A DNA stretch of 64,000 nucleotides from a virus. The notes beneath the pieces are model-generated. The model ran no database searches. It was given only the letters and a program-made list of their open reading frames with translations, and was not told the DNA's origin. A program made the position numbers and the translations under genes. Below, in pieces: positions 15,295 to 47,551 of the stretch. How positions within the stretch are numbered: position 1 is the stretch's first letter; every line of letters begins with the position of its first letter. Location of the stretch: positions 1 through 64,000 of the IMG/VR virus record IMGVR_UViG_3300021519_000916; one strand, 5' to 3'.

Positions 15295-15358
15295 GGCGCC
15301 GTAGTCAAAACTCAGCTTTAACCAATTCCGCTAAATAAGCTATATGAGGATTTAATCT

Positions 15359-28885: not shown

Positions 28886-28994
28886 TTATACAAAGCAATT
28901 TTAACTATCAAGGGCCCTCCTTGATAAATAACTATGTAATTTAATGCTTAAATTACTATTCTTAATAATTTATTATCCCATTCAGGAGATTCAT

Positions 28995-29954
28995 ATGTCG
29001 CAAAAACATACATTAAACTGGGTTTTGGCCCACGAACCATACCACGTATTCATCGAAGCGGCTAAGAGCTTTGCTGACGAAATTAACACAGAAACTAACG
29101 GTCAATATACAATTAACGTTGTTGACTTAAATGAGTGGAACGCAATCGCTCAAGCAAACTTATCCGTACACACAACAGACCGTGAAAAAATCATCGGCCT
29201 AGTTGATACAGGTGTAATTGATATGGCTACAGTTTATGCAAGTACATTAGGTCGCATTGACAAAGACATGTATGCACTAACAATGCCTTTCTTATTCAAC
29301 AGCGATGAGCAAGCACGTAAGGTAATCGACGGCGACGTTGGTCAACACATGTTAGCTAAAGTTGCAGATAACAGCAACATCCGCGGTTTAGCATTTACAT
29401 ACTCAGGTGGTTTCCGTATTGTTCCAAGTAACAAGGCAATCGAATCTGTTGGTGATTTTGCTACTATGAATATTGGTTGCGGTAATAACCTAGTTGCAGT
29501 TGAAACATTTAAAGCAGTTGGTTCCAATCCAGTTCCAATGTTTATCGAAGACTTAGAAGAAAAATTAGCTACAGGTCAAGTTGACGGTGGCGAAACAACA
29601 TACACACGTTTCTTTGTATTAGGTCACGATAAGCAAACTACACACATTAACGATAACGAACACAGCTTATTCTTAACTAGCTTGATCATTAACCAACAGA
29701 CTTGGTTATCATTGGGCGAAAAGGTACAAGGTATTTTTGCTCGTGCGGCAATGAGAGCCGCTCAAATTGAACGTGATCATAGTTTAGCCGACAACGTTCT
29801 AATTCAGAAACAAGCCGCAGAAAAAGGTATTCCAACTGTACGTATGACCGAAGCTGAAAAAGCCAAGTTTGTATCTGCCACAGCAGGCCTATACACAAAG
29901 TTCAACACTTACTTTAGTTCTGGTCTACTAGATCAATTACAAGGTAAAAAATAA
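28995..29954 (+). CDS. dctP: TRAP DctP-like substrate-binding protein without signal peptide
   Basis: MPFLF, IDGDVG, GLAFTYSGGFR, TGQVDGGE, H; AGGAG RBS; TAAATA at 28925. Confidence 0.85.
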   Translation: MSQKHTLNWVLAHEPYHVFIEAAKSFADEINTETNGQYTINVVDLNEWNAIAQANLSVHTTDREKIIGLVDTGVIDMATVYASTLGRIDKDMYALTMPFLFNSDEQARKVIDGDVGQHMLAKVADNSNIRGLAFTYSGGFRIVPSNKAIESVGDFATMNIGCGNNLVAVETFKAVGSNPVPMFIEDLEEKLATGQVDGGETTYTRFFVLGHDKQTTHINDNEHSLFLTSLIINQQTWLSLGEKVQGIFARAAMRAAQIERDHSLADNVLIQKQAAEKGIPTVRMTEAEKAKFVSATAGLYTKFNTYFSSGLLDQLQGKK

Positions 29955-30658
29955 TGTTGAGCCCAAAAGAGTTTATAGCACGTTTAGCCAAACAATGTGA
30001 ACCATTGTATCAGCATCACGAACAAGCAGTAGCAGAATACTTTGCTAACAAGCCAAGTAAAGAAGATATGATTGGCTACTTTAGCCGTCGTATGATCAAT
30101 GAACGTATTAACTGCATCCAGTTAGCCAAGCGTGTAGGTAGCTTGCCAATGGATACTAGCGCAGAAGAAATGTTCTTGTTGAGCAAACAAGCACATGACG
30201 AAGCTAAACACTTCTGGTACGTTAAAGAAATCGTAGAAGATATGTTAGGTCATGAAGTTGATGTTGACGCTACATTTGAAAAGATCAAAGAAGAACAATT
30301 AAAGCAAGAAGAAGATGGTTACGATCGTTTTCGTCCAGCTGAATTGTTAGAACATTTCGAGTGTTCAGAAGATCCAGTTGCACTAGCAGTTTACCAATAC
30401 ATTGCCGAAGGCATGGCACATCGTAATTGGGTAATGCAAGCTGAGTGTGCTCCTAATGAACTAATTGCTGAAAAGTATGCCGAAATTGCTAAGGACGAAA
30501 AGTTCCACGCAAGTCTAGGTCGTGCGGCATTAGAAAAATTAGTAGTCGATCCAGAAGTACAAGCTCGTGCTCAAGCATTAGCAGATCAATTTATTGCAAT
30601 TTTATGGGATTTGCGTTGTATCAAACAACATATCCCGATGTCCGAATTAGCAGTTTAA
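29954..30658 (+). CDS. ferritin-like diiron-carboxylate protein
   Basis: E...DEAKH...E...DEKFH ligand set in a helical protein. Confidence 0.8.
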   Translation: MLSPKEFIARLAKQCEPLYQHHEQAVAEYFANKPSKEDMIGYFSRRMINERINCIQLAKRVGSLPMDTSAEEMFLLSKQAHDEAKHFWYVKEIVEDMLGHEVDVDATFEKIKEEQLKQEEDGYDRFRPAELLEHFECSEDPVALAVYQYIAEGMAHRNWVMQAECAPNELIAEKYAEIAKDEKFHASLGRAALEKLVVDPEVQARAQALADQFIAILWDLRCIKQHIPMSELAV

Positions 30659-30662
30659 TCTC

Positions 30663-30703
30663 TTGACAAGTTGGCACTAGGTAGCGTATACTAGTGCTAA
30701 CTT
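30663..30703 (+). terminator. 13-bp hairpin overlapping a sigma70 promoter
   Basis: AAGTTGGCACTAG/CTAGTGCTAACTT; TTGACA-N18-TATACT. Confidence 0.6.
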
Positions 30704-30718
30704 TGTAGTCCCCTTTAA

Positions 30719-31438
30719 ATGAATAACCCCTTAAGCGAATACGATAGCGTATGGGAATGGTCTAAGACTAAAAGCTCTTACCATTTTGATAACACTAAAC
30801 AAGACCGTCCTAATTCTACCTTTATGGTTGTTGGACAAATACCTGTAACCTGGGCAGACTATTTGCCTGCAATACGTCAACAGAGTTTTACTACAACATG
30901 GAATAACATTACCAGCACAGGCGGCGCCAAGCAAGTTGTACTAGGCATTGATAAACGACGTGCTGATATTGCTAAAGGTGGCGGTGACCTTGACAAGATT
31001 GAAATGACTGATGTCTTTGATGACTTTACCAACTATCCCGAGTTACAAAAGATTATTGACAGCTTTCATTTTAGTGCAATTCATGCTCGCTGTCATGTAC
31101 AAAAGACAGGGCAAATGTTTACAGCACACATTGACCCGATACAAAGATTGTTTTACAAAGATGGTAACGGTAATCCCGACTCAGGCGATTACGGTTACGA
31201 TCCACTAGATATTGTTCGTGCTACAGTTATGTTAGAAGACTGGCATCCGGGACAATTTATGATATACGGCAATACTGTTTACCAACAGTGGCGTGCCGGA
31301 GAAATACACATGCACGATTGGCCAAACGTACCACACGCTACAGCCAACGCAAGTGAACACAGTCGTATTACTCTACAAGTAACAGGACTAAGAACTGCTT
31401 TAACTGATCCAAAATTTAACGTGAGGAACTTCAAATGA
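30719..31438 (+). CDS. 2OG-Fe(II) oxygenase/cupin-like protein
   Basis: HID...H facial triad (FTAHIDP, VPHATAN) followed by R-x-T-L-Q-V-T. Confidence 0.7.
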   Translation: MNNPLSEYDSVWEWSKTKSSYHFDNTKQDRPNSTFMVVGQIPVTWADYLPAIRQQSFTTTWNNITSTGGAKQVVLGIDKRRADIAKGGGDLDKIEMTDVFDDFTNYPELQKIIDSFHFSAIHARCHVQKTGQMFTAHIDPIQRLFYKDGNGNPDSGDYGYDPLDIVRATVMLEDWHPGQFMIYGNTVYQQWRAGEIHMHDWPNVPHATANASEHSRITLQVTGLRTALTDPKFNVRNFK

Positions 31439-32340
31439 TCAAACGACTTTTACTAACAGCTTTATTAGCCTTATCAACTACTGCATTTGCTGGAGAACGA
31501 ATTACTCTGTATTGGGGTTTTAGTCCTGCCGCCAACCAAGCAAACTTTTATCGTGCTATGGTAGCAGAACTTAAACGTACTCAAACCAAGTATGAATTCT
31601 TTTTTGAAACTAAACCAGGTGCTGGCGGCGCCATTGCCGCGAAACATATTTTAGACAACCCTAAAAATACCCTGCTAGGCGGCACAAGTACTTTCTTTAT
31701 TAGACCAAACTTTGATAAAGAAACTGGCTATAGCGCAGAAAGTTTTCAACCAGTCCTAGTTCAAACTCTTGGCGCACCAGTTGCATTTTTTAGTTCTAAG
31801 TATAATAACATTAAAGTATTGAAAAAGGATCAAGACTTAACAACATCAATTAGTGGGTACGGTAGTCACAGTAACCTAATGGGCAGTATCTTGGGGGAAC
31901 ATTACTCTGGTGTTCGTATTATTAACTATGTTAGTCTAGTAGATGCTGTTAGAGATGTAGAGGGAAAACACATTGACACCGGGTGGAACTGGTTGGCCGA
32001 GATTGAAGGTGCAGTTGAAACAAATACGACAAGTGTGCTTGGCATTACTGGAACTCGTAGTGTCAAAGGTTTCCCTACATTGGCCAGCCAAGGCATCAAG
32101 GGATTTGAAAACGCCAGTACCAATACTGTCATTGTTGCCAGTGCCGAAATGCCTGCGGAAAAAGTTCGAGAATTATACGAACTGCTACGTGTAGCAAATC
32201 GAGCACCGGATGTACAAGCTGGCTATGCTAGAGAGTATTCGACTCCGGCAGACTTTACATGGCCTCAAACAGTTAGTTGGTTTAATCAGCAAGTTAAGTT
32301 TTGGCGCGAACAGGCCGCAAAAGTTAAGCCACTACAATAA
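31435..32340 (+). CDS. Bug/TctC-like tripartite tricarboxylate transporter substrate-binding protein (secreted)
   Basis: Signal peptide ..TAFA, KPGAGGAIA, DVEGKHID, PTLASQG. Confidence 0.8.
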   Translation: MIKRLLLTALLALSTTAFAGERITLYWGFSPAANQANFYRAMVAELKRTQTKYEFFFETKPGAGGAIAAKHILDNPKNTLLGGTSTFFIRPNFDKETGYSAESFQPVLVQTLGAPVAFFSSKYNNIKVLKKDQDLTTSISGYGSHSNLMGSILGEHYSGVRIINYVSLVDAVRDVEGKHIDTGWNWLAEIEGAVETNTTSVLGITGTRSVKGFPTLASQGIKGFENASTNTVIVASAEMPAEKVRELYELLRVANRAPDVQAGYAREYSTPADFTWPQTVSWFNQQVKFWREQAAKVKPLQ

Positions 32341-33479
32341 TGAATAAGAAACTCGGTTACTACGTATGTGATGGTCAAGAATTTAATTCTAAGATCAATT
32401 GTGCAATACATGCCACACAAGCAAATAAACCCATGTCTTGGGTTTTTAACAATGACGTCTTTTCTAATTACGATTTTAGTAAAGATCCAGAAGAAACATT
32501 AGATGCTCTGTACGATCGCCGTGCTAGAGAAATTAGAGAAAAATACGATTATGTTGTGTTAAGCTACTCTGGGGGTTCCGACAGTCATAATATCTTAATG
32601 TCATTTTATCGACAAGGATTACACATTGACGAAGTAATCAGTAACTGGGTATTTGAAGCTAGTAAAAAATTTACTATCATTGATTCTTTAGTTAACGATG
32701 CATGGAATCAAAACGCCGAGTACGAGCTACATACCAAAGAACGCCTGCAATGGATCTATGATCATATGCCCACGACCAAGGTCACATTATACGATTGTGG
32801 TAAACAAATTTATACGTATTTTAATAAGGCCAAAGACCCAACGTGGGTAACCGATCATGTTGAACCCTTGAACCCTGCGGCCACACAACGTTATAATCCG
32901 TTACAAATTAAAGATATTCGTTTGCGTATAGACAAACAACATTCAATTGGATTTATAGTGGGTGTTGATAAACCCCTGAGTCTTATTGTTGACAACAAGA
33001 TGTATCTGCGTTTGCGGGATAAAACTGCAAACATTATTCCCAGCAGTATCTACACCAGCGAATACGATAACACCACGGTTGAGTACTTTTATTGGGCGCC
33101 TGAATCATGCGCTATGTTGGCCAAACAAGGACATACTATGCTCAAGCATTTGAACACCAATAAACAATACCAGTTGATTTGGAAACCTAGCCAGGTTGAA
33201 AACTTTAGAGCCGCACAAGAAACTCTGATGAGAAGTATAGTTTATACCACATGGGATGAGCAAAACTCATTTCAAACAAAGAAACCGACTAACGATTGGT
33301 ACAGTGAACTAGACTATTGGTTTACTGAACAATTCAGGAATACCCCCGCTGGCCGCAATTGGCAAGCAGGGGTAGACTATTTAGAAAATTCTGTTGATAA
33401 ATCTTTACAACTTACAACTGGAAAGAAGGGCTTGAAGGTTTTCTTCTCACCCCTTTACTATGTTGGCGATGTTGTTTAG
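32340..33479 (+). CDS. PP-loop (adenine nucleotide alpha-hydrolase-like) enzyme
   Basis: RRAREIREKYDYVVLSYSGGSDS; GVDKP; paralog of 40074 and 41393. Confidence 0.7.
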   Translation: MNKKLGYYVCDGQEFNSKINCAIHATQANKPMSWVFNNDVFSNYDFSKDPEETLDALYDRRAREIREKYDYVVLSYSGGSDSHNILMSFYRQGLHIDEVISNWVFEASKKFTIIDSLVNDAWNQNAEYELHTKERLQWIYDHMPTTKVTLYDCGKQIYTYFNKAKDPTWVTDHVEPLNPAATQRYNPLQIKDIRLRIDKQHSIGFIVGVDKPLSLIVDNKMYLRLRDKTANIIPSSIYTSEYDNTTVEYFYWAPESCAMLAKQGHTMLKHLNTNKQYQLIWKPSQVENFRAAQETLMRSIVYTTWDEQNSFQTKKPTNDWYSELDYWFTEQFRNTPAGRNWQAGVDYLENSVDKSLQLTTGKKGLKVFFSPLYYVGDVV

Positions 33480-34501
33480 TCTTTACGACGTTCAATAATA
33501 CGTTTTACTAAGTTTATATCGATACCCATGACTTCAACATGGCGATAGCTTAGTTTTGCTCGCTTCCGTAACAACACCTGGTCTTCTTCAGACAAGTCAA
33601 TGATTGTAACACCATTGGCTACAGCATCGCGTTCGTATTTTTCAGCATCTGCAACAGACCACTCACGTTCGATCTTAGCTACACGCTTTGCGGCAACCAT
33701 AAATGCATTACGTTGTTCTTCTGTTAAACTATCTAAGAACTTAGTACCAGTTAAGATAGTTGTCATGAAAATACTGTGATTTGTTTTTAATACGTGCTTA
33801 CCAGTAAAGCGAATGTATGTAGTTTCAATAGCCATGCCGTCATCTACACCTTCAGCTAAACTAGCGTTAGCAACTTCAGAGCGACGTAGGATTGGAGTTC
33901 CAAAACCATCGCCAAACAATACTTCGCTTGGACGATTAGCAACGATCAGATCTGTTTGTGCTAAATCACTAAGATTGCTTAGACCATTTGTGCTACCGAT
34001 AATGCGATAACCACCGGAGTAAGTAAATGCTAAACCACGAATCTTTTCATTTTCTAGGCCTTTGCATAGCTCGTCACCAATTTCGCCATCTAGTACACGA
34101 CTAACGTGATCGTGACTGTCAAACAAGAATGGTAAGTCTAATGCGGCAAAGTCTTTGTTCTTTAATTGTTCGGCAACTGTGAATACTTGAGTTTGGCTCA
34201 TTTCAAAATCGCCGGCACGTAACGCATCAAAGAATGTTGTCCATTTTTGTTGCATATCTCTAATGTGGCCAACGGTATGTTCACTAGTACTATCTTCTAG
34301 ACCAGGAATGCTTGGCTTTCTAAGACGCAGAGCTTCCGATTTTTGGTATTGATCAACGTATGAATCAATAGTGTGAATTTCAAGTTCAAATTGTCCCGGG
34401 CACAAAGTTTCTAGTTCGCGGCCAAATGCTTCGGCAGTTCTTTGAAATAGGTGTACCGGAAAGTGTGCAATTAACCAACGTATTTTTCTACGGTCAGACA
34501 T
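33476..34501 (-). CDS. dctP: TRAP DctP-like substrate-binding protein without signal peptide
   Basis: IRWLIAH, LPFLF, VLDGEIG, GLAFTYSGGYR; AGGAG RBS; TAAATA on - strand at 34530-34535. Confidence 0.82.
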   Translation of the reverse strand: MSDRRKIRWLIAHFPVHLFQRTAEAFGRELETLCPGQFELEIHTIDSYVDQYQKSEALRLRKPSIPGLEDSTSEHTVGHIRDMQQKWTTFFDALRAGDFEMSQTQVFTVAEQLKNKDFAALDLPFLFDSHDHVSRVLDGEIGDELCKGLENEKIRGLAFTYSGGYRIIGSTNGLSNLSDLAQTDLIVANRPSEVLFGDGFGTPILRRSEVANASLAEGVDDGMAIETTYIRFTGKHVLKTNHSIFMTTILTGTKFLDSLTEEQRNAFMVAAKRVAKIEREWSVADAEKYERDAVANGVTIIDLSEEDQVLLRKRAKLSYRHVEVMGIDINLVKRIIERRKD

Positions 34502-34566
34502 ATTTGTATCTCCTGAGGATTTAAACATATATTTATGCTTGACCGTAGTCAAATGCCAAAAATACC

Positions 34567-35325
34567 TTAAACTTCCTTGTATATTTTAAGAATTTCAAGT
34601 ACAGCTGGATGTCGTTGTATGTCCTTGTTGGCAAATTCAACTCCCGACACAAACTTACATTCACGATACTCATCTACTAAACGTGTAAAATCTAACAAAC
34701 CGTTATCAGCTTCTTTTCGGTCTGCTTGGCGAGTGTCTCCTGTGATAATCATCTTAGACGCTTCACCCAATCGTGTGAGTAACATTTTCATTTGACTTGG
34801 TGTTGCGTTTTGCATCTCATCTGCAATAATCCAAGATTTCTTAAATGTTCTGCCCCTCATATATGCCAGTGGAGAAATCTCAATTGTTTGATCATCTAGC
34901 ATTTTTACGATTTCGCTTTGTCTATAATACTCCCCAATGACGTCAAATATTGGTCTAGTCCATGGTGCCATTTTTTCATTTAGCGTACCCGGTAAGAAAC
35001 CGTGTTGTTCATCATCTACCCCAACTGCTGGTCTAGTTATAACTATACGTTCGACTTCTCCGGATCTGTAGGCTTTCAAGGCCGCAAGGACCGCAAGCAT
35101 AGTTTTACCCGTACCTGCTGGACCTGTGGCAAATATAATTAGCCGTTTAGGATCAGTTAGTTGATCGATGTATTTTTCTTGTGTTAGACTTTTTGGGAGA
35201 AGAGAAATTGGACGTTGCTGTTGTTGCTGTGGTTTTCGATATAAGTCCAATCTTACTGCGTTGTTACTAGTGAAGTTACTGTTGATTGTTAGAGCATCTG
35301 CTCTACGTTGTTGCCGTTTGGACAA
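34567..35325 (-). CDS. phoH: PhoH-family ATPase
   Basis: GPAGTGKT, GFLPG, YMRGRT, DEMQN, GDTRQ.D. Confidence 0.95.
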   Translation of the reverse strand: MSKRQQRRADALTINSNFTSNNAVRLDLYRKPQQQQQRPISLLPKSLTQEKYIDQLTDPKRLIIFATGPAGTGKTMLAVLAALKAYRSGEVERIVITRPAVGVDDEQHGFLPGTLNEKMAPWTRPIFDVIGEYYRQSEIVKMLDDQTIEISPLAYMRGRTFKKSWIIADEMQNATPSQMKMLLTRLGEASKMIITGDTRQADRKEADNGLLDFTRLVDEYRECKFVSGVEFANKDIQRHPAVLEILKIYKEV

Positions 35326-35436
35326 GTGTGCCTCCTGTTAGTAGATTTGTAGATCAATTTTACCTACACAAATATTTAGGCGCAAACTTGTTTATTTTAT
35401 ACGACCTGTTTATGGTCGAAAAACCAACATAAATAA

Positions 35437-36171
35437 TTAACTATGAGTGAGACACTGGTACGCAAAGTACAGACGCTCGTTGGTATCCTTCTTAAACTCC
35501 AATAGTTTCAAATTATACTTTTCAGCAAACTCGTTTACTATTTCAAATGTCCACGGAAAAATATCTACATACGGGCCAGTCTTGTGCGGAATACCAGGAT
35601 TGGCTCTTAGATAAAATTTCCCCCCGGGTGCAAGCAACTCTATGCAATGTGCAAATCTAGCTTCAATGTCATCTCGACTATTAAAGTTTATGGACCCCAA
35701 TGCAATAATGTGATCGTGTTTACGTGTCACTTTATAGTCAAGAATATCTACCATATAGTCAGCACAATTGTTATAGGGATCAATGCCTATTAGATTATCA
35801 ATTTTCCCTTTAAACGGATGATATCCGCAGCCAACATCCAACACGTTTTGTGGACCTTGTTTTTGAATTTCATCTGCTAGACCCCAACCAGTGTAGTCGT
35901 AATCCCCTGTGCGTGGTTTCCATATTTCACTAAAGAATCGATGAATGTATCTCTCACTTAAATCATCTACTACTTCTTTTAATGTACCTCGGTATTCACA
36001 GGGTAAACATAACTCAGCTTCAACAGCATCTTTAAACTTGCGATAACGTGCTGGTGTCCATGGCAGGTCCTCTACTATAGTATCTTCATTAATAGCAATA
36101 TGTTGATATTTTGGTAGGCTAAATGCACCATATAAATTTTGGGAGATTAAGTTAAAAATTTTAGTATTCAT
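35437..36171 (-). CDS. SAM-dependent methyltransferase with N-terminal ACP-like helical domain
   Basis: VLDVGCG, GIDP, LAPGG; N-terminus resembles a carrier-protein pattern. Confidence 0.75.
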   Translation of the reverse strand: MNTKIFNLISQNLYGAFSLPKYQHIAINEDTIVEDLPWTPARYRKFKDAVEAELCLPCEYRGTLKEVVDDLSERYIHRFFSEIWKPRTGDYDYTGWGLADEIQKQGPQNVLDVGCGYHPFKGKIDNLIGIDPYNNCADYMVDILDYKVTRKHDHIIALGSINFNSRDDIEARFAHCIELLAPGGKFYLRANPGIPHKTGPYVDIFPWTFEIVNEFAEKYNLKLLEFKKDTNERLYFAYQCLTHS

Positions 36172-36267
36172 TGATTTTTTTCTATTAGATAAATAATTTT
36201 TACAGAAACATAAGAAATTTTTATGTCTGACTGTTTTTCTATAAGTATTTAATCAAAGGATAGCTCA

Positions 36268-37221
36268 ATGAAAAAATTAGTAGCCATATTACTACTTGTG
36301 CCACTGTTAGCATTTGCGTGGGAACCAAAAAAGCCAATAACTGTTATATTTCCAAATGGTCCCGGTGCCGGAAACGAAATTAGTTTTAGATTTGTGGCAA
36401 GTATAGTAGAAAAGAAAACTGGCAGTAGTTTTGTGTCAGAATATCGCCCAGGCGCCGATGGTAATGTTGCAATGAATCATTTTGCCACTGCGCCGGCTGA
36501 TGGATATACTGTTGCTGTTCCTGCTTGCCAAAGTAACTGGGTAACTGCAGAGGTTTGGTATAGCAATATATTAAAATATGATGCTCAAGAATTTGAGCCG
36601 GTTGCTAATATTGCACGTAGCCCTTTGGCATTTTGGGCAACCCCAAAAAGTAATATCAACAATCCAAGAGAACTGGTTGATGCTATTAAGAATAGCAACC
36701 GTCCAATCACATTTGCAATTGGTGGTGGCGGACATAGATTAGCGGTAGAATATCTGGCGGAACGTTTAGGTATCCCGAATAGCAGAATAACAGTGGTAAT
36801 GTATAAAGGTCCAGCACAAGCATTATTAGATGTTATGGGAGGACATGTAGAATTTGGTGTTACTCCAGTGGCAGTGGGGTGGCCCCAAGTGCAAGCCAAC
36901 AAACTAAAGTTAATTGGTATAGCCAACGAGCATCCACTTAAAGGATTAGAAAATGCTCCATTAATGAAAACTGTTGCTCCGGGTTTGTTTATACATGGAT
37001 GTTGGAACATAGTATTGCCAAAAGGTACACCAGCTGATGTACAAGCGTGGTATCGCGATCAATTTGTACCTGCTATTAGAAGTAATGAAGCCCAAGAAAA
37101 GTTTGTGGACAATATGATGTTTATTACACCAACAGAACATACCCCGGAAGGTGTCAGGGCAAGTATGGCCCGTTTGCGACAAGTATGGCAACCAATTGCT
37201 AAAAAGGTAAACCCAGAATGA
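36268..37221 (+). CDS. Bug/TctC family substrate-binding protein (secreted)
   Basis: WEPKKPITVIFPNGPGAG, RPGADGNVA, APADGYT, YKGPAQALLDVMGGHVE, LPKGTP. Confidence 0.9.
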   Translation: MKKLVAILLLVPLLAFAWEPKKPITVIFPNGPGAGNEISFRFVASIVEKKTGSSFVSEYRPGADGNVAMNHFATAPADGYTVAVPACQSNWVTAEVWYSNILKYDAQEFEPVANIARSPLAFWATPKSNINNPRELVDAIKNSNRPITFAIGGGGHRLAVEYLAERLGIPNSRITVVMYKGPAQALLDVMGGHVEFGVTPVAVGWPQVQANKLKLIGIANEHPLKGLENAPLMKTVAPGLFIHGCWNIVLPKGTPADVQAWYRDQFVPAIRSNEAQEKFVDNMMFITPTEHTPEGVRASMARLRQVWQPIAKKVNPE

Positions 37222-37820
37222 AATATATTTTTATAGCTGGTGCGCCCGGTTCAAAATGGTCCAGTGTAGCTCTTAATATCTATTATAGTCCAGATGTTGA
37301 CCGCAGTGATGCACAAGCCAATCGAAACTATAGTCGCAACGGCACAGTCATGCATGTGGGCGGTTACTTTGATCCTGGTATGGAATTTGGCGATTGGTTT
37401 GATCAGTTAGATAAACATACCCAAGAAGAATGTGAAGCAGAATTTGATCGGCCGTTTACAGGTGAGGGGGTGCGTATTATCAAGAGTCATATGTTTATGT
37501 ATCATATTGGGTTCCTAAAACAAAACTGGTCCGATGCCCCTATCATTATGGTACACCGGGGTGATGATGCTTCTTTAGGATGGTGGGTGCGGTCTGGTGG
37601 ATTTGACATCACTTACCCCGACTATCAACCCTACTATAAAGATTTAGACTTTATGTCAGAGGAAATCACAAGACAAAATGCGGCCATGCGTCCTCACTGG
37701 GATTTGGGAAGTTTTGTCTACAATAATCTTGAGCTGTGTGACCAAATTGGCATTGCCCTGCCCCCACCTGAATATAAGCAAAACTACGCCGATAATAAAA
37801 TAAGGGTAAAAGTATTATGA
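37218..37820 (+). CDS. P-loop/sulfotransferase-fold protein
   Basis: IFIAGAPGSKWSS resembles the PAPS 5'-PSB loop; IIKSH; MVHR. Confidence 0.5.
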   Translation: MKYIFIAGAPGSKWSSVALNIYYSPDVDRSDAQANRNYSRNGTVMHVGGYFDPGMEFGDWFDQLDKHTQEECEAEFDRPFTGEGVRIIKSHMFMYHIGFLKQNWSDAPIIMVHRGDDASLGWWVRSGGFDITYPDYQPYYKDLDFMSEEITRQNAAMRPHWDLGSFVYNNLELCDQIGIALPPPEYKQNYADNKIRVKVL

Positions 37821-37891
37821 CACAAGCTAAATAACTGTAGCACTTCGACGATATCCGTCACACACCCCAAAAAAACAATAAGGAATTCTAT

Positions 37892-38371
37892 ATGAAAACA
37901 ACAAAAATTCGCTGGGTAATCGCTCACGAACCGCTAGATCTTTTTATCCGTGCCGCTAAGGATTTCCAAGACTTTTTAAATGCCTCACAGTCGGCTGAAG
38001 AAATTGAAGTAGAAGTAATGACACTAAGTGAGTATTCTACAAAGTATAAAAACGGCGAAACAGTTACCAAGCACGATTTGCTAGACCTAATAGAGTCCGG
38101 TGAAATTGAAATGAGCCAAATGTACACAACCTGGCTGGCAGAAAACTTTAATCACGATATGTTAGCATTAGAAATGCCATTCCTATTTGAAAATCACGAA
38201 CATGCAACTCGTGTACTAGAAGGTGAAGTTGGCGAATATCTATTAGATAAAACAACTGAAAATTCAAATGTGCGCGGCCTAGCGTTTACATATTCGGGTG
38301 GTTTCCGTAATGTACTATCAAACAAAAAAGTTAATAATCTAAAAGGTCTAACTGGTGAAGATCAGAACTAA
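37892..38371 (+). CDS. dctP: DctP-like protein, N-terminal half
   Basis: IRWVIAHEP, MPFLF, GLAFTYSGGFR; stops shortly after; TAAATA at 37828. Confidence 0.8.
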   Translation: MKTTKIRWVIAHEPLDLFIRAAKDFQDFLNASQSAEEIEVEVMTLSEYSTKYKNGETVTKHDLLDLIESGEIEMSQMYTTWLAENFNHDMLALEMPFLFENHEHATRVLEGEVGEYLLDKTTENSNVRGLAFTYSGGFRNVLSNKKVNNLKGLTGEDQN

Positions 38372-38849
38372 TCGTAATCCTGTAGCACAAGAAACTTTTC
38401 GAGCACTAGGTGTGGAGTCGGAAGACATCCACATCTGTGAAATTGAAGATCTTGCTGAGCATATTAAGTCTGGCGAATGTGATGCCGGCGAAGGTGTATA
38501 CAGTCGTGTGTATCCGTTAAAACAAAATGAAGTTACCAAAAGCGTTATTGATAGTAAACATAGTTTGTTTCTTACCACCATGATTATTGGCAATACATTT
38601 TATGAAAAGTTAAGCCCGGAAGTACGTGCTATTATCAAAGAAGCGGCATTAGATGCTGGACGTAAAGAACGTTTAAAAACTATTGAAGATGGCGAGCAGG
38701 CCAAACAAAAATTGATCAACGAAGGTGTTAACATACACAATCTAACACCAGAAGAACTTGCCGAGTGGAAAGAAAAGACTCAAGTTGTTTACGACAAATT
38801 TGAACCTACCTTTACACCAGGATTAGTTGACAAAATCAAACGCAGTTAA
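38355..38849 (+). CDS. dctP: DctP-like protein, C-terminal half (+1 frame)
   Basis: KIRT...FRALG...SGECDAGE...HSLFLT; GTG start overlapping the first half. Confidence 0.8.
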   Translation: MKIRTNRNPVAQETFRALGVESEDIHICEIEDLAEHIKSGECDAGEGVYSRVYPLKQNEVTKSVIDSKHSLFLTTMIIGNTFYEKLSPEVRAIIKEAALDAGRKERLKTIEDGEQAKQKLINEGVNIHNLTPEELAEWKEKTQVVYDKFEPTFTPGLVDKIKRS

Positions 38850-38861
38850 TTTTACCAAATG

Positions 38862-38902
38862 ATTGAGTAGGTATTTACATCCTACTCAATTTTCTGTATA
38901 AT
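38862..38902 (+). terminator. terminator hairpin with sigma70 -35 in its loop
   Basis: ATTGAGTAGG/CCTACTCAAT followed by T-run; TTTACA(38874)-N17-TATAAT(38897). Confidence 0.65.
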
Positions 38903-38925
38903 CTATAAATCAATTAGGAAATTTA

Positions 38926-39162
38926 ATGTTTAAAACTCAAATATCTGAGCGCATTCCGCGTTCTCTGGCAAAAGTCATAACATGGCGAATCTTGGTAACA
39001 ATTACAAACTTTCTCGGTGGATGGCTAGCCAGCGGCAATCCCTGGGTCGGCCTAGGTGTTGTTAGTTTTGCTCTGGTAGTAAACAGTATACTGTATTTCT
39101 TTCACGAACGTGCATGGAATCGCACAGACTGGGATAGATCAATCAATGAGGAATCAAGATGA
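38926..39162 (+). CDS. DUF2061-like small membrane protein
   Basis: RSLAKVITWRIL...YFFHERAW. Confidence 0.8.
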   Translation: MFKTQISERIPRSLAKVITWRILVTITNFLGGWLASGNPWVGLGVVSFALVVNSILYFFHERAWNRTDWDRSINEESR

Positions 39163-40064
39163 AAAAGATTTTAGCTACATTACTAATGGCTTTTGCACTC
39201 ACAGCACAGGCCAAAGAAACAATTACAATTATTTACGGGTTTAGTGCGTCTGATAACTCAGCAAACTATTCACGTAATTTAGCCAACGAAGCAAACAGCC
39301 AACAAACCAAGTATAAATTTTTATTTGATGTTAGGCCAGGCGGCGGTCAAGCAGTTGCAGTAAATCATGTAAAAAATACACGGAACACTATTTTTATGAC
39401 ATCCGGCGCATTTTGGTTACGTCCAGTTTTTTATCCTAACGAAAGTTGGGACGTTAACGAATGGCGCACGATCATGACACAATGTAGCGCACCATTTAGT
39501 GTGGCCAGCGTAAAATATAAGTCATGGAATGATGTACCAAAAAATCAACCATTGACTATCGCAACAAGTGGTATGGGTGTATTCAGCCATATCATTGCTT
39601 TACAAATTGTAGAACGATATCCAAACATGACTTTAATCCCATTTAAGTCCACGGTAGAAGGTATGTTGGCCGTTGTTAGTGGGCAAGTTGATTTTGCTGT
39701 TGGCTTCGTGGGCGATCAAGAAAATTGGACTCACGAAGAAACTAAGACTCGTTTAAATATTCTCGGAACCACTGGTAATGGTGCTGGAAAATATCCTAGT
39801 TTAGCAAGCCAAGGCTTTCCGCAGGTTCTAACTAAGTTAGATACACCATATAACTTAATGGTTCCAAAGTCGTTTGATGCAGGCAAGGCAAAAGAAATCC
39901 GCGATATACTTGCTAAGGCCGAAACAGCAACAAGTGTACGTAAAAGTTATGCATTAGATTTTTGTGCGCCTATATCTATTCCAGAGAATAAATTAAATGC
40001 TTGGTTTGACGAACAGAATAAAACTATACGCAATACCACAAAAGGGTTAACTATTACTCAATGA
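39159..40064 (+). CDS. Bug/TctC-like substrate-binding protein (secreted)
   Basis: Signal ..TAQA, RPGGGQAVA, IPFKS, VSGQVD, PSLASQG; paralog of 31435. Confidence 0.8.
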   Translation: MKKILATLLMAFALTAQAKETITIIYGFSASDNSANYSRNLANEANSQQTKYKFLFDVRPGGGQAVAVNHVKNTRNTIFMTSGAFWLRPVFYPNESWDVNEWRTIMTQCSAPFSVASVKYKSWNDVPKNQPLTIATSGMGVFSHIIALQIVERYPNMTLIPFKSTVEGMLAVVSGQVDFAVGFVGDQENWTHEETKTRLNILGTTGNGAGKYPSLASQGFPQVLTKLDTPYNLMVPKSFDAGKAKEIRDILAKAETATSVRKSYALDFCAPISIPENKLNAWFDEQNKTIRNTTKGLTITQ

Positions 40065-40073
40065 TGCAAATTT

Positions 40074-41393
40074 ATGAATAAATTCGAACACACCACTGTT
40101 GCTGATGTGGCTCACGACTCAAATAAAAAGTTAGGTTATTATCTTTTTAATAATCAAATTTATTATAATAAAATGCAAGTGTTACTAGAAGCATCTAAAA
40201 CATCCAAAGACAACGTAAATAAATCACCAGAGGACGACATTAAATGGTTCTTCAATAATGACGTATTCATGAAATTCCCATGGCATGTGGAACCCGAAAC
40301 GCCACTTACTGAACTGTATCGTATACGGGCGCAACAACTCAGGGATCAATATGATTATATACGGGTTGAGGCATCAGGTGGGTCCGACAGTAGTACTGTA
40401 GTTTATAGCTTTTTACTTAACAACATTCACATAGATGAAATAGTATTTAGATATCCCAAGATTGGTGAGAAGGGAGTTTCTAATACTGCGCGATTTACCC
40501 AGTGTGAAAATACTCTAAGTGAATACGAATTTGCTACCAAACCAATGCTTAATTGGATTGCTACTAATTATCCTAAAGTTAAAATCACAATCTACGATTA
40601 TAGTGAAGACATGATTGCAAACGCAGATCGCGCCGACGAGTCATGGATATTTAAAACTAGACACTATTTACAGCCCGGACATGCATATAAAAATTCCTTA
40701 ACAGGCTTCACAGAACATCGAAGATTAGCAGACTCCGGTATCAACATTGGCGTCATATACGGCGTAGATAAACCCAAGATATGTATCAAAGATGGTAAGT
40801 TCTTTTTATATTTCTTTGACAGTTTAGCAAATTATAACAATCCAGATGTTGGCGATTATACAAATATAACCAATGAATATTTTTACTGGACTCCGGACAT
40901 GCCAGAGATACTTGCAAAACAAGCTCATATATGTAAGTATTGGTTTAGTATGCCGGAACATTATCAATTTCAAAAAACCCTGCATTGGCCTAATATGGAC
41001 TTTGCCGCTAGAAACTTATATGAGCAATTAGTCAAGGGAATTGTATATCCAGACTACGACCCAAATACATTCCAGGTTGCTAAACCCAGCAATAATATAT
41101 ACAACGAAATGGACCATTGGTTCCATGTCAACTTCAAAAATACCAAAGCATATAACGTATGGGAAGCCGGCATTAATCACCTACTAACTAACTTTCACGA
41201 GTCGTATATAAAAATGGACATACATGGTAGGGCATCAAATATTCAAGAATTTATGAGCCCGTTTTACTATGTTGGGGACAGTGACATTCCTGAGATTGGA
41301 GTAATAAAGAATAGAGAATTTATATCCAATAGTCGTTTACCAGTTTCTCAGAGACATGTGCATTTTATAAAAAACAAAATGGTAATTTATTAA
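40074..41393 (+). CDS. PP-loop (adenine nucleotide alpha-hydrolase-like) enzyme
   Basis: RAQQLRDQYDYIRVEASGGSDS; GVDKP. Confidence 0.7.
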   Translation: MNKFEHTTVADVAHDSNKKLGYYLFNNQIYYNKMQVLLEASKTSKDNVNKSPEDDIKWFFNNDVFMKFPWHVEPETPLTELYRIRAQQLRDQYDYIRVEASGGSDSSTVVYSFLLNNIHIDEIVFRYPKIGEKGVSNTARFTQCENTLSEYEFATKPMLNWIATNYPKVKITIYDYSEDMIANADRADESWIFKTRHYLQPGHAYKNSLTGFTEHRRLADSGINIGVIYGVDKPKICIKDGKFFLYFFDSLANYNNPDVGDYTNITNEYFYWTPDMPEILAKQAHICKYWFSMPEHYQFQKTLHWPNMDFAARNLYEQLVKGIVYPDYDPNTFQVAKPSNNIYNEMDHWFHVNFKNTKAYNVWEAGINHLLTNFHESYIKMDIHGRASNIQEFMSPFYYVGDSDIPEIGVIKNREFISNSRLPVSQRHVHFIKNKMVIY

Positions 41394-42694
41394 TGAAAAT
41401 TGAACATACACAGGTCGCCGGCGTTACTTTAGAATCAAATAAAAAGTTAGGGTATTATCTGTTTGATGACCAAGTGTACTATAATAAATTTCATGTACTA
41501 CTAGAATCATCCAAAACTGAAAAGAATAAACCACTAAACGATGCAGTTAAATGGTTCTTCAATGATGACGTATTCATGAAATTCCCATGGCACGTAGAAC
41601 CCAAAACATCAATGCAAGAACTATATCGTATGCGGGCCCAGCAACTCAGGGACCAATACGATTATATACGAGTTGAAGCGTCTGGCGGAGGAGATAGTAC
41701 TACTGTAGTCTATAGTTTTTTACTTAATAATATTCATTTAGACGAAGTTGTTTTTAGATATCCCAAAACCGGAGAGAATGGTGTGTCCGGAGATGCATGG
41801 GCAACTAACTGTGAGAATACCCTGAGTGAGTGGGAATATGCTGCAAAACCATTGCTTAATTGGATCGCTACTAACTACCCCAAGGTTAAAATTACAGTAC
41901 ATGATTATAGCGAAGACATGATTAAAAATGCTGACCGTGCCGACGAGTCATGGATATTTAAAACTAGACATTACCTGCAACCGGCACATGCACATAAACA
42001 CTCCACTACAGGATTTATTGAACATCGCAGGTTGGCCGATACCAATTCTAAAATTGGTATAATATACGGAATTGACAAACCCAAGTTATGCATTAAAGAC
42101 GGTAAGTTCTTTTTATATTTCTTTGATAACTTGGCGAATCACAATAACCCCGACGTTGGCGATTATACAAATATAACCAATGAGTTTTTCTATTGGACTC
42201 CGGACATGCCGGAGATAGTGGCCAAACAAGCTCACATGTGTAGGCATTGGTTTAGCATGCCGGAACATTATCAATTCCAGCGCACACTACTTTGGCCCAA
42301 TATTGACTTTTCTGCTAGAAGCTTATACGAACAACTAGTAAAAACCATTGTATACCCAGATTATGATTGCAATACATTCCAAGTAGCTAAACCAAGTAAT
42401 AACATATACAACGAAATGGATCATTGGTTCCATGTCAACTTCAAGAATACCAAAGCATATAATGTGTGGGAAGCTGGCATTAATCACTTGTTAAACAACC
42501 TTAATGAAAATTATATACATCTAGTTAACGGAAAACAAACAAATATTAAAGAATTTATGAGCCCGTTTTACTACATAGGGGAATGTAATATACCAAGCAT
42601 GGGCGTATTACAAAACAAAGCGTTAATGGATAAAGCCAGGGCAATGGCTACAAAACACGTACACTTTATAAAGAATAAGATGGTAATTTATTAA
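41393..42694 (+). CDS. PP-loop enzyme, tandem duplicate of the upstream gene
   Basis: SGGGDS; co-linear and highly similar to 40074..41393. Confidence 0.7.
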   Translation: MKIEHTQVAGVTLESNKKLGYYLFDDQVYYNKFHVLLESSKTEKNKPLNDAVKWFFNDDVFMKFPWHVEPKTSMQELYRMRAQQLRDQYDYIRVEASGGGDSTTVVYSFLLNNIHLDEVVFRYPKTGENGVSGDAWATNCENTLSEWEYAAKPLLNWIATNYPKVKITVHDYSEDMIKNADRADESWIFKTRHYLQPAHAHKHSTTGFIEHRRLADTNSKIGIIYGIDKPKLCIKDGKFFLYFFDNLANHNNPDVGDYTNITNEFFYWTPDMPEIVAKQAHMCRHWFSMPEHYQFQRTLLWPNIDFSARSLYEQLVKTIVYPDYDCNTFQVAKPSNNIYNEMDHWFHVNFKNTKAYNVWEAGINHLLNNLNENYIHLVNGKQTNIKEFMSPFYYIGECNIPSMGVLQNKALMDKARAMATKHVHFIKNKMVIY

Positions 42695-42733
42695 CCAACT
42701 CAATGCTCGCATATTTCGATAAATAATTGTACT

Positions 42734-43843: not shown

Positions 43844-44470
43844 ATGAGCTTCGATTTCAATTTCACTAAAGAAAAGTTAGCAAAAATTATTACAGGTAAC
43901 CAATACGTAGACCATTGGTTTGACGCACTGAACACTATATTACCAGATTATGAGATTACCTCATTGAATCGTGTTGCGGCATTTATAGCGCAGACAGCCC
44001 ATGAATCCGGCAACTATAAAGCATTAAAAGAGAATTTAAATTATCAGGCCGCATCTTTGTGTAAGGTATGGCCAAGGTTATTTCCAACAATGGAAATAGC
44101 AAATCAATACGCACATAAGCCAGAGATGATTGCTAATCGTGCCTACGCAGATCGTATGGGCAATGGTAACGAAGCAAGCGGCGACGGGTGGAGACATTGC
44201 GGACGTGGACTTATCCAACTAACCGGTAAGGCAAACTATACTGCATTTGCAGAAAGTATTGAAACACCAGTGGATGAATTAGTTGAATTTTTACAGACCT
44301 TTGAAGGCGCTGTACAATCAGCTTGCTGGTTCTGGGAAACTAATAACTTAAACCAATGGGCAGACAAAGGTGATATGCTTACGTTAACTAAACGTATCAA
44401 TGGCGGCACATTGGGACTTGACGATCGTATTAAACATTATAACCATGCATTAGAAGTGCTAGGCGCCTAA
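43844..44470 (+). CDS. glycoside hydrolase family 19 endolysin
   Basis: AQTAHESG, ENLNY, GRGLIQLTG, TKRINGG. Confidence 0.9.
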   Translation: MSFDFNFTKEKLAKIITGNQYVDHWFDALNTILPDYEITSLNRVAAFIAQTAHESGNYKALKENLNYQAASLCKVWPRLFPTMEIANQYAHKPEMIANRAYADRMGNGNEASGDGWRHCGRGLIQLTGKANYTAFAESIETPVDELVEFLQTFEGAVQSACWFWETNNLNQWADKGDMLTLTKRINGGTLGLDDRIKHYNHALEVLGA

Positions 44471-44935
44471 ATGTTTGGATGGTTAGTTGAACACGCACTA
44501 TTAATAATTCCAACTTGGGCATGGTTGGCACTTGCTGTTGCTGGCGCAGTAGTATATTATCTCAGCGGATTTATTCTAGCATTTCCACAATTTAAGCCAT
44601 ATGGCATATTAGTTAAAGTAGTCGGAGTACTGGCATTACTTGGCGGAGTATTCATGACCGGCGGCGAAGGAGTTACAGCTATATGGCAACAACAAATTAA
44701 AGAATCAAACGAACGTATTGCTATAGCCGAAGCGCAAAGCAAAGAAGTTAATGTTAAGATAGTGGAAAAGGTTGTTAAGCAATTAGAAGTAGTGCATCAA
44801 AAGGGCGCTGAAGTTATAAAGTATGTGGATCGCGAAGTTACCAAATACGATAATACCTGCCCTGTTCCTGATGTGGTAGTCAAGGCACACAATGCGGCCG
44901 CATTAAATCAATCAATTGAAAAGGATAAGAAATGA
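44471..44935 (+). CDS. inner-membrane spanin-like (Rz-like) protein
   Basis: N-terminal TM helices, coiled coil, C-terminal Cys; follows endolysin. Confidence 0.65.
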   Translation: MFGWLVEHALLIIPTWAWLALAVAGAVVYYLSGFILAFPQFKPYGILVKVVGVLALLGGVFMTGGEGVTAIWQQQIKESNERIAIAEAQSKEVNVKIVEKVVKQLEVVHQKGAEVIKYVDREVTKYDNTCPVPDVVVKAHNAAALNQSIEKDKK

Positions 44936-45198
44936 AATACTTACTAATCCTGGTTACAATTATGCTAACAGCATGTGCATCTACAGTACCAACCATAGCT
45001 AAATTTCCCGAAGTGCCATCGCAACTATTAGAGAAGTGCCCACCATTAAAAACAATACCAACAGAAACAACAGTATTCAGCGAGTTAACTAAAACAGTTA
45101 CAGTTAACTACACAACATATTATGAATGTGCAATAAAACAAGAAGCATGGGCTGAATGGTTCAATACTCAGAAGAAAATATACGAGAGTTTAAAATGA
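44932..45198 (+). CDS. outer-membrane spanin-like lipoprotein (Rz1-like)
   Basis: LTAC lipobox, Pro-rich segment, further Cys residues. Confidence 0.7.
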   Translation: MKYLLILVTIMLTACASTVPTIAKFPEVPSQLLEKCPPLKTIPTETTVFSELTKTVTVNYTTYYECAIKQEAWAEWFNTQKKIYESLK

Positions 45199-45608
45199 AA
45201 AAATTAATATACGTAGCCTTGTTTTCGTTGTTGTCTGGATGTGCAAGTATTCAAAATATATACGAAGCATATACAATGGCTAAGTTTGATGTTAACGAGT
45301 ATCAATACATCACACGTATACGTACACACGCACAGCTAGGTGGTCCATTGTGTGGAACACCCGACGTTAAAGAACATGTTAAGTATATTTTTGTAGTGGC
45401 ACAAGAATATAAAAACTACGCAGAATTAATACCCAACAATCAAAACAGTTTTAAATTAGCAACAACGCTAACGCAAATTACTGATGAATTTGCTAAAAAA
45501 TATCAAGGTGCAGAAACACCGAGTGTTGTATATTGCAAGGCTAAATTTATGGCTATCGAACGTTCAAGTGAGAACATACAAAAGGTTATAGGAGCCAAGC
45601 CAAGATGA
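45195..45608 (+). CDS. lipoprotein
   Basis: LSGC lipobox. Confidence 0.7.
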   Translation: MKKLIYVALFSLLSGCASIQNIYEAYTMAKFDVNEYQYITRIRTHAQLGGPLCGTPDVKEHVKYIFVVAQEYKNYAELIPNNQNSFKLATTLTQITDEFAKKYQGAETPSVVYCKAKFMAIERSSENIQKVIGAKPR

Positions 45609-45868
45609 ACGCACAACAAATTTTAGATGGCATTTACGGAACACAAACACAAGACCCCATTGCACAGCAATTAGCAGGGGTATTAGCACAATACACCCAA
45701 CAATTTCAAGCAGGGCAGATGAGCAAAGACGAATACGCTGAACTAGTAAGAGATTTACAAACAGAACAACTAATTAATGCTCAGTGTAGTGACTTAGAAG
45801 CCAAAGAACGGTTAAATACAATATGTAATGCAGTATTAAATGCAGTGGACATACTAAGTAGCATATAA
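45605..45868 (+). CDS. hypothetical protein
   Basis: ORF with GGAG RBS. Confidence 0.6.
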   Translation: MNAQQILDGIYGTQTQDPIAQQLAGVLAQYTQQFQAGQMSKDEYAELVRDLQTEQLINAQCSDLEAKERLNTICNAVLNAVDILSSI

Positions 45869-45892
45869 AAATAATTCAAATAGGAGCTAATA

Positions 45893-47541: not shown

Positions 47542-47551
47542 ATATTTTTAT

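Follow-up and report, generated by a model that had tools for sequence, protein, structure and literature searches.

Why should a large phage carry, in a single island, six solute-binding proteins interleaved with enzyme genes? The island in question spans 28.9–42.7 kb (13.7 kb) of a 64,000-nucleotide stretch of viral DNA, here called the window, which is the first part of the 136.5-kb IMG/VR record IMGVR_UViG_3300021519_000916 (CheckV completeness 39%). The phage is an uncultured one. Its DNA polymerase shares 47–51% identity with that of jumbo phages Phosso and Atu_ph07 and ~41% with that of Rak2-like Yersinia, Erwinia and Serratia phages, and the record is placed with the Atu_ph07/Rak2-like jumbo phages. 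An earlier sequence-only reading of the window had seen three DctP-like and three Bug/TctC-like proteins among tailoring enzymes, and had proposed a pathway that makes or modifies a carboxylate-type metabolite and binds it on both sides of the membrane, rather than a simple uptake module; all of the genes that it called were found again at, or close to, where it had put them. The island genes belong together, and through them an infected cell probably gains the means to capture small organic acids and to alter these chemically.

Conserved linkage of binding proteins and PP-loop enzymes

The genes on which the argument turns are as follows (window coordinates).

28995..29954, + strand: DctP1, DctP-family protein with no signal peptide (PF03480 E 1.6e-44)
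31435..32340, + strand: TctC1, predicted secreted Bug/TctC-like protein (PF03401 28.1 bits, marginal; signal peptide MIKRLLLTALLALSTTAFA)
32340..33479, + strand: PP1, predicted PP-loop adenylating enzyme (SGGSDS; 410.6 bits to the family profile)
33476..34501, − strand: DctP2, no signal peptide (PF03480 E 5.6e-23; start MSDRRKIRWLIAHFP with AGGAG before it)
36268..37221, + strand: TctC2, predicted secreted protein of the Bug family (PF03401 E 5e-26, 92.3 bits; signal peptide)
37218..37820, + strand: ST, enzyme of predicted sulfotransferase fold (AlphaFold2 pLDDT 87.5; 4-nt overlap with the TctC2 stop)
37892..38371, + strand: DctP3, N-terminal half, no signal peptide (PF03480 E 6.6e-16, profile positions 35–135)
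38355..38849, + strand: DctP3, C-terminal half, GTG start (PF03480 E 3.1e-28, profile positions 138–284)
39159..40064, + strand: TctC3, predicted secreted TctC-like protein (PF03401 19.2 bits, below cut-off; signal peptide)
40074..41393, + strand: PP2, PP-loop enzyme of predicted AsnB-like fold (SGGSDS; AlphaFold2 pLDDT 88.2)
41393..42694, + strand: PP3, a recent tandem duplicate of PP2 (SGGGDS; 77% identity to PP2)

Each Bug gene is, as had been claimed, directly followed by an enzyme gene: the TctC1 and PP1 genes overlap by 1 nt, those of TctC2 and ST by 4 nts, and 9 nts separate TctC3 from PP2. The coupling reported for the first DctP gene was also seen, its stop codon overlapping the start of the gene for a candidate diiron protein. 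The largest intergenic gap anywhere in the island is 111 nts.

Scanned with PP2, viral contigs yielded 102 relatives, from which 80 loci were kept (67 once near-identical loci were removed). In jumbo-phage contigs of 354, 374, 317 and 289 kb the island occupies the same position, with the same genes at its flanks and phoH inside it. Three sub-modules are seen repeatedly, namely DctP – diiron/oxygenase – TctC – PP, methyltransferase – TctC – ST – oxygenase, and PP – DctP – TctC – PP; at the other end of the range one locus (L036) holds only phoH – PP between the flanks. When all open reading frames (ORFs) were clustered, a TctC-like gene was present in 49 of the 80 PP-bearing loci and a DctP-like gene in 21. 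The 67 non-redundant loci hold 102 PP genes. A TctC-like gene adjoins 39 of these on the same strand, where 1000 within-locus shuffles give 8.3 ± 2.5 (maximum 17), and a DctP-like gene adjoins 11, where the shuffles give 3.4 ± 1.7 (maximum 10). The PP–TctC pair is kept even in distant T4-like lineages, at 25–33% identity, where its neighbours are neck and gp15 genes, 2-oxoglutarate (2OG) oxygenases and a fatty-acid hydroxylase. The earlier proposal had been made to hang on whether these families co-occur and keep synteny in other phages, and they are syntenic in many large ones.

The modules of relatives bring in further enzymes: an ATP-grasp ligase (L044), a B12-binding radical S-adenosylmethionine (SAM) enzyme (L082), a methyltransferase (L019) and, between two PP genes, a flavoenzyme of the tryptophan-halogenase family (L024:8379-9992, Pfam E 2.8e-52). 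In L018 a phosphonate-type binding protein occupies the DctP slot. The enzyme variety looks like tailoring chemistry; halogenase, radical-SAM, ATP-grasp and methyltransferase genes fit that part of the earlier proposal in which a metabolite is made or modified, as does the predicted fold of the PP enzymes.

The three PP-loop enzymes first recognised by their SGGxDS motifs hold up as such, and the fold of the model is that of carboxylate-adenylating amide synthetases. A search with the family profile finds PP1–PP3 as the only copies in the 136.5-kb record, and among 45 family sequences S101, G102, G103 and D105 are invariant, with S106 nearly so. None of the three matches any Pfam family even at E up to 5, Asn_synthase (PF00733) included. 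NCBIfam gave 0 matches for 10 island proteins, and of ten proteins scanned against PHROGs only DctP1 (to a family without assigned function) and two flanking virion proteins had matches. PP2 found no match by tblastn in 50,697 GenBank phage records, the PP profile nothing significant among PDB sequences, and the PP2 model only weak PP-loop matches in Foldseek (TM-score 0.2–0.3). The family has 1,202 matches in a 90%-clustered database, with a Pfam domain on 0 of the 120 listed, and 1,942 representative clusters at 50% identity. Its ESM Atlas matches are exclusively viral hypothetical clusters (99–100% viral), and its NCBI-sourced homologs bear no informative names. As far as viral and metagenome matches go, it would be a virus-only family, known only from viral or unnamed metagenome records. 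The C-terminal extension of one 584-aa member (P0270) matches nothing.

Direct comparison of the PP2 model with solved structures gave E. coli AsnB (1ct9) as the nearest, with Z 10.1 over 297 residues, followed by human ASNS (9b6c, Z 9.9), beta-lactam synthetase (1jgt, Z 8.6), TsnB9 (7ylz, Z 8.2) and carbapenam synthetase (1q15, Z 7.6); for GMP synthetase, NAD synthetase, CysD, LarE and TilS Z is at most 7.5, and for QueC it is 5.4. The AsnB score is at least 2.5 units above those of the other PP-loop classes, the Z itself being moderate and the model a predicted one. Likeness to the AsnB class consists of the SGGxDS PP-loop and of alignments over 220–297 residues (Z 7.6–10.1). The phage enzymes differ from that class in lacking, besides a Pfam Asn_synthase match, the N-terminal nucleophile (Ntn) glutaminase domain and its Cys2 (the N-termini of PP1–PP3 are MNKK, MNKF and MKIE), and in being multi-copy and paired with binding proteins. 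A small domain of ~75 residues precedes their PP-loop domain. Enzymes of the AsnB and beta-lactam synthetase class adenylate a carboxylate and form an amide or a lactam, and to judge from their fold the PP enzymes may likewise carry out carboxylate adenylation and amide formation. [A second PP-loop-like family, c2 (e.g. L066:3618-4457, ~279 aa), accompanies PP genes in 27 of the 80 loci and is absent from the window; its matches to Asn_synthase (E 0.045) and QueC are sub-threshold.]

The three Bug/TctC-like proteins are, at the PF03401 cut-off of 27 bits, one clear, one marginal and one below cut-off but homologous to the others. TctC2, the clear one, has full-length PDB matches to 2dvz (2.4e-24), Bug27, BugD and terephthalate-binding proteins, and in the 50,697 GenBank phage records a single match, within 20–26% identity. 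TctC3 is, pairwise, 30% identical to TctC1 over its full length (E 1e-42) and 23% identical to TctC2 (E 1e-9); TctC1 and TctC3 together make up a divergent subfamily whose scores are at the Pfam cut-off or below it. Bordetella Bug proteins belong to the TctC-type receptor family. The signal peptides of all three window proteins end in an AxA-type site, and an N-terminal hydrophobic stretch is present in 53 of 55 distinct TctC-like relatives, the remaining two being start-codon over-calls in which it lies further in.

The DctP-like proteins are also three, one of them split in two ORFs, and all four ORFs score above the PF03480 cut-off of 23.4 bits (152.8, 82.1, 58.9 and 99.4 bits). DctP1 can be called from 28944 or 28995; the latter start is the most likely because AGGAG lies 7 nts upstream of it and orthologs begin at the same residue. 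Its N-terminus begins WVLAHEP. It matches 73 DctP/SiaP chains in the PDB (best 4.9e-22), its GGFR Arg lining up with that of GGSR in 4xfe, and its 15 tblastn matches among the GenBank phage records (20–26% identity) are mostly short unannotated fragments. The DctP2 gene call reaches 34552 on the minus strand, its start being placed at 34501, and the protein retains GGYR. DctP3 is divided at the same residue in L009, L022, L023 and L067 as in the window (five contigs), with a 4-nt stop/start overlap in L022, L023 and L067, and the C-terminal half begins with an MK(I/L)RTNRNPVAQET segment common to other split copies; in L019 and L027 the gene is fused. Because the same split recurs in these four loci, the divided DctP3 is taken to be a natural two-gene binding protein and no error.

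Compared with the DctP/SiaP receptors of tripartite ATP-independent periplasmic (TRAP) transporters, to which Pfam and PDB sequence matches tie them, all three window copies keep the conserved ligand Arg (GGFR, GGYR, GGFR), as do 13 of 18 aligned sequences of the DctP-like clade, window copies included. However, the clade has invariant residues of its own (W9, H13, T135-Y-S-G-G139, R205, H223, E259 and R260), one window copy is split in two genes, and no member has a signal peptide. The window proteins start right at the first strand of the fold, W-V/L-I/L-A-H-E/F-P, and an N-terminal hydrophobic stretch is present in none of the 20 DctP-like relatives having an N-terminus, nor in any of the three window copies. 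That metabolite-binding proteins sit on both sides of the membrane had been part of the earlier proposal, and signal-peptide prediction agrees, with TctC-like proteins bearing signal peptides and DctP-like proteins lacking them. The predicted division, TctC-like proteins in the periplasm and DctP-like proteins in the cytoplasm, is conserved in relatives. To our knowledge a cytoplasmic use of the DctP fold is not known from cells.

Permeases and candidate tailoring enzymes

The absence of DctQ/DctM and TctA/TctB, first noted for the window, extends to the whole 136.5-kb record (39% complete), in which DctM, DctQ, TctA and TctB were all sought and none was found. Full-length TctA is encoded in 6 of 36 related viral records (0 of the 2 that are at least 90% complete) and DctM in none of the 36, so the module is tied to tripartite tricarboxylate transporter (TTT), not TRAP, transport. 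TctA directly follows a PP gene in L019 and L044 and follows PP – DctP in L014; in L019 a major facilitator superfamily (MFS) transporter also follows the DctP-like gene. The absence of DctM fits the DctP-like proteins not being transport receptors. Transport looks like part of the system, and this phage probably uses a permease of its host. The contention that the island is not a simple uptake module is weakened by TctA in 6 of the 36 related records and by the MFS gene of L019.

The likeness to known TTT/Bug receptors lies in the end-to-end alignment of TctC2 with solved Bug and TTT receptors, in the predicted export of all three TctC-like proteins and in the TctA that some relatives place beside the module. 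The differences are that neither TctA nor TctB accompanies these genes in the phage record, that the genes are phage-borne and each coupled to a gene for a cytoplasmic enzyme, and that TctC1 and TctC3 are divergent. A viral parallel is PstS of cyanophages, an orphan binder that uses a host permease and boosts phosphate uptake. It too is exported and encoded without a permease, but the island has several binders, of two families, one of them cytoplasmic, and they are tightly linked to enzymes.

ST, called a sulfotransferase-fold protein from the outset, is borne out as one by its predicted model. The best structural matches are to tyrosylprotein sulfotransferases (TPSTs): TPST1 (5wri), TPST2 (3ap3) and a tick TPST (8w5z), with Z of 11.4, 10.8 and 10.7 over ~163 residues. 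Other sulfotransferases follow at Z 8–9, where P-loop kinases, at up to 8.6, overlap. It differs from TPSTs in being 13–14% identical to them, 200 aa long and cytoplasmic. The Pfam sulfotransferase match (PF13469, PF00685; E 0.21, 12.2 bits against a cut-off of 27) is below threshold. The ST family has 3,788 matches and is unusually conserved (64–97% identity among the top 120); PF13469 is found on 1 of 120 listed homologs, and the ESM Atlas holds viral hypothetical clusters only. Its invariant residues, G8-x-P10-G11-S12-K13-W14-S15 and R114-x-x-D117, may correspond to the 5'-phosphosulfate-binding (5'-PSB) and 3'-phosphate-binding (3'-PB) motifs of the 3'-phosphoadenosine-5'-phosphosulfate (PAPS) site, which they resemble. 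In 5 of 6 ST-bearing loci ST follows a TctC2-like gene.

The remaining genes of the island are these.

29954..30658, + strand: candidate ferritin-like diiron protein (sub-threshold Rubrerythrin and FA_desaturase_2 matches, 18–20 bits, E ~1e-3)
30719..31438, + strand: candidate double-stranded beta-helix (2OG-type) oxygenase (HxD...H triad; weak AtsK match)
34567..35325, − strand: phoH (PF02562 E 1.3e-67, 227.7 bits; same position in 11 of the 80 related loci)
35437..36171, − strand: candidate class I SAM methyltransferase (Methyltransf_23 16.5 bits against a cut-off of 27; VLDVGCG motif)
38926..39162, + strand: DUF2061 small membrane protein (PF09834 E 2.1e-14; 4-nt overlap with the TctC3 start)

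The names given earlier to phoH and DUF2061 agree with Pfam; DUF2061 homologs occur in a few of the related loci. For three other genes the earlier names survive in part. The diiron enzyme has its weak family matches, all of them below the Pfam threshold, and homologs in 4 of the 80 loci. In the HxD..H oxygenase the triad (H137, D139, H206) is invariant and R167 nearly invariant across 21 sequences, with family support limited to a weak AtsK profile match (E 0.0015 over 44 residues); it has no Pfam match, and hhalign against a Pfam-supported 2OG cluster gave a probability of 0.3. What had been described as a fusion of an ACP-like part with a methyltransferase keeps, weakly, its methyltransferase part, with homologs in 7 of the 80 loci, and nothing found supports the ACP-like part.

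Setting, promoter-like boxes and a leader RNA in relatives

The island does not differ in GC (0.39–0.41) from the rest of the window. Upstream of it are clamp-loader genes, and downstream two PHROG 'virion structural protein' genes, a GH19-like lysin, a holin, DnaJ and a Lon-like protease. The lysis cassette that adjoins the island (window 43844-46393) comprises the candidate GH19-like lysin at 43844-44470 and a holin with three transmembrane segments at 45893-46393; at 46696-49843 a phage DnaJ, with J domain and C-terminal domain, is followed by the 763-aa Lon-like ATP-dependent protease. Megablast of the island against GenBank phages gave no match, no tRNA genes were found in the window, and Rfam had no match in 27–45 kb.

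Three boxes head operons of the island.

28923..28931, + strand: GATAAATAA box, like a T4 late promoter, at the head of the first operon
36188..36196, + strand: GATAAATAA box before TctC2
37826..37834, + strand: GCTAAATAA box before DctP3

They resemble the T4 late promoter consensus, TATAAATA. Matches to (G/T)(A/C)TAAATAA in the window are at 15330, 28923, 36188, 37826 and 42718, all on the + strand and in short gaps just upstream of gene starts, and that at 42718 precedes a virion gene. Five matches are not above chance (7.3 expected), so only the placement of the boxes is suggestive, and they are candidate late promoters.

In relatives a (G/C)(A/C)TAAATAA box is followed within a few bases by the start of a strongly conserved multi-stem leader RNA of ~110 nts. 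In an alignment of the upstream regions of 13 DctP-like genes, 8 of its 17 predicted pairs show compensatory changes. With the covariance model built for it, the 80 loci yield 29 copies with E of at most 1e-11, 16 of them outside the training set (12 after discounting near-identical loci). The copies precede DctP-like, TctC-like, TctA-like (L082) and oxygenase (L038) genes (an example is L013:11208-11319). Rfam has no match at the positions of the RNA in L013, L033 and L082; the RNA looks like a riboswitch, apparently one not previously described. That one RNA stands before several gene types argues for one shared regulatory ligand. [In L082:3487-5845 the leader RNA and TctA are closely preceded by a group I intron match (53 bits) and by a cluster of three tRNA genes.] The best match to the model in the window (13.2 bits, E 0.12) is inside the Lon-like gene and was rejected as chance.

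Readings of the island

The reading favoured here, with a confidence a little short of even, is that the island is a conserved virus-specific accessory module for periplasmic capture via a TTT permease and cytoplasmic amidation and tailoring, with DctP-like proteins that keep hold of substrate or product. Small carboxylates would be bound in the periplasm by the three exported Bug/TctC-like proteins and passed to a TTT permease, which here would be the host's and in some relatives their own TctA. In the cytoplasm the PP enzymes, shaped like the synthetase half of AsnB without its glutaminase domain, would use ATP to adenylate the carboxyl group, which would then be joined to ammonia or an amine; the sulfotransferase-fold enzyme, the methyltransferase and the two candidate oxygenases would tailor the compound, and the signal-less DctP-like proteins would bind substrate or product inside the cell. 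The observations on which this builds are the protein families, the linkage and adjacency conserved among them, and the folds of two of the enzymes; flux direction, amide chemistry, late expression timing and the role of the product are what we infer. Co-occurrence, binders on two sides of the membrane and the PP fold all favour the pathway proposed in the sequence-only reading, of which the denial of uptake has been weakened.

Several points weigh against capture and conversion. There is no permease in the record or in two complete relatives, so uptake would need that of the host. Late-promoter-like boxes, with virion and lysis genes as neighbours, are odd for nutrient uptake. The leader RNA was not found in the window with the covariance model, filters off. 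Five of the 18 aligned DctP-clade members lack the canonical ligand Arg, and the role assigned to the cytoplasmic DctP-like proteins is a guess. There being no Pfam Asn_synthase match, the chemistry of the PP enzymes rests on fold similarity of moderate Z. That late-gene context is one reason why the reading is held no more firmly. A bolder version, rather doubtful at present, is that large phages run a small-molecule pathway of their own, with Bug-type import, virus-only amide synthetases, sulfation, methylation and oxidation, DctP-type binding in the cytoplasm and, in relatives, a riboswitch-like RNA together with halogenation and radical chemistry. Its product would serve late infection, e.g. 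in virion or envelope chemistry or in host manipulation.

The late context could be turned to another account, unlikely but the one that comes next in weight, in which the enzymes act not on a free metabolite but on a protein or peptide, either part of the virion or ribosomally made. Like the AsnB-family cyclases of lasso peptides, the PP enzymes would then make isopeptide or amide links, with tyrosine as the target of the sulfotransferase and side-chain hydroxylation as the task of the oxygenases. TPSTs are the nearest structures to the ST model, the island adjoins two virion structural genes and then lysis genes, the same kind of box heads island operons and virion gene alike, relatives have radical-SAM and halogenase genes, and distant lineages have PP–TctC pairs beside neck and gp15 genes. 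However, a fold like that of TPSTs leaves the substrate undecided, gaps of at most 111 nts give the island no space for the gene of a precursor peptide, and exported carboxylate receptors, TctA and MFS genes would be left unexplained. Somewhat less likely again is a loose set of auxiliary genes in a variable hot spot, with binders that boost TTT uptake by the host and enzymes that are unrelated cargo. Between conserved flanks the content does range from one PP gene (L036) to more than 10 genes, modules are shuffled between phages, and orphan Bug receptors are common in some bacteria. Yet PP–TctC adjacency is ~5 times the shuffled expectation and is kept at 25–30% protein identity, binder and enzyme genes overlap at stop and start codons, one leader RNA is common to several gene types in relatives, and cytoplasmic DctP-like proteins cannot serve uptake.

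It is improbable that the island intercepts a signal, the cytoplasmic DctP-like proteins acting as a sponge for a host defence or regulatory metabolite, the periplasmic binders sensing the environment and the enzymes rendering the molecule inactive. Such a role would be in keeping with an expanded and rapidly changing set of paralogs, with high-affinity binder folds in the cytoplasm without a permease and with the invariant pocket signature of the clade (TYSGG, R205, H223, E259, R260); but the tie to TctA speaks for transport, the immune signals so far known are nucleotides rather than carboxylates such as these folds usually bind, and Pfam, NCBIfam and PHROG scans of the island, the PADLOC library not having been searched, show no defence family. 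Least likely is that the PP enzymes replace a missing QueC and amidate 7-carboxy-7-deazaguanine for DNA modification. The conversion of carboxylate to amide would be the chemistry required, and the record has a QueD (6-pyruvoyl-tetrahydropterin synthase family, PTPS) gene at 78764-79153, 14.8 kb past the window end, with no Pfam match to QueC (PF06508), a combination also present in the complete relatives G005 and G008 and the near-complete G009 and G016. Nevertheless QueD is missing from 15 of 29 PP-bearing records, among them records 78%, 65% and 63% complete, queD is ~36 kb from the island, the PP fold is nearer to AsnB (Z 10.1) than to QueC (Z 5.4), and three paralogs, secreted binders and a sulfotransferase would be left unexplained.

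Nowhere in the literature searched, supplements aside, is phage TctC or DctP described in company with PP-loop modules. In the passages found of PMC6359870 and PMC4164917, tctA is named only as a putative viral auxiliary gene, and 'TctC' in PMC8290583 denotes a primer. The island would be an uptake-plus-conversion operon, phage-borne and built with new families. The PP (~1,900 clusters at 50% identity) and ST-like (~3,800 matches) families are large, virus-dominated and without a Pfam or PHROGs model. By being conserved as partners of binding proteins, they mark out a phage function that is widespread and so far without a name. The leader RNA of relatives provides a direct handle on the metabolite of the pathway. 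If capture and conversion is the correct reading, phages would take up metabolites and rework them with enzymes of their own, the auxiliary metabolic gene concept would extend towards natural-product-like chemistry, and the fold of a transporter binding protein would have been reused inside the cell.

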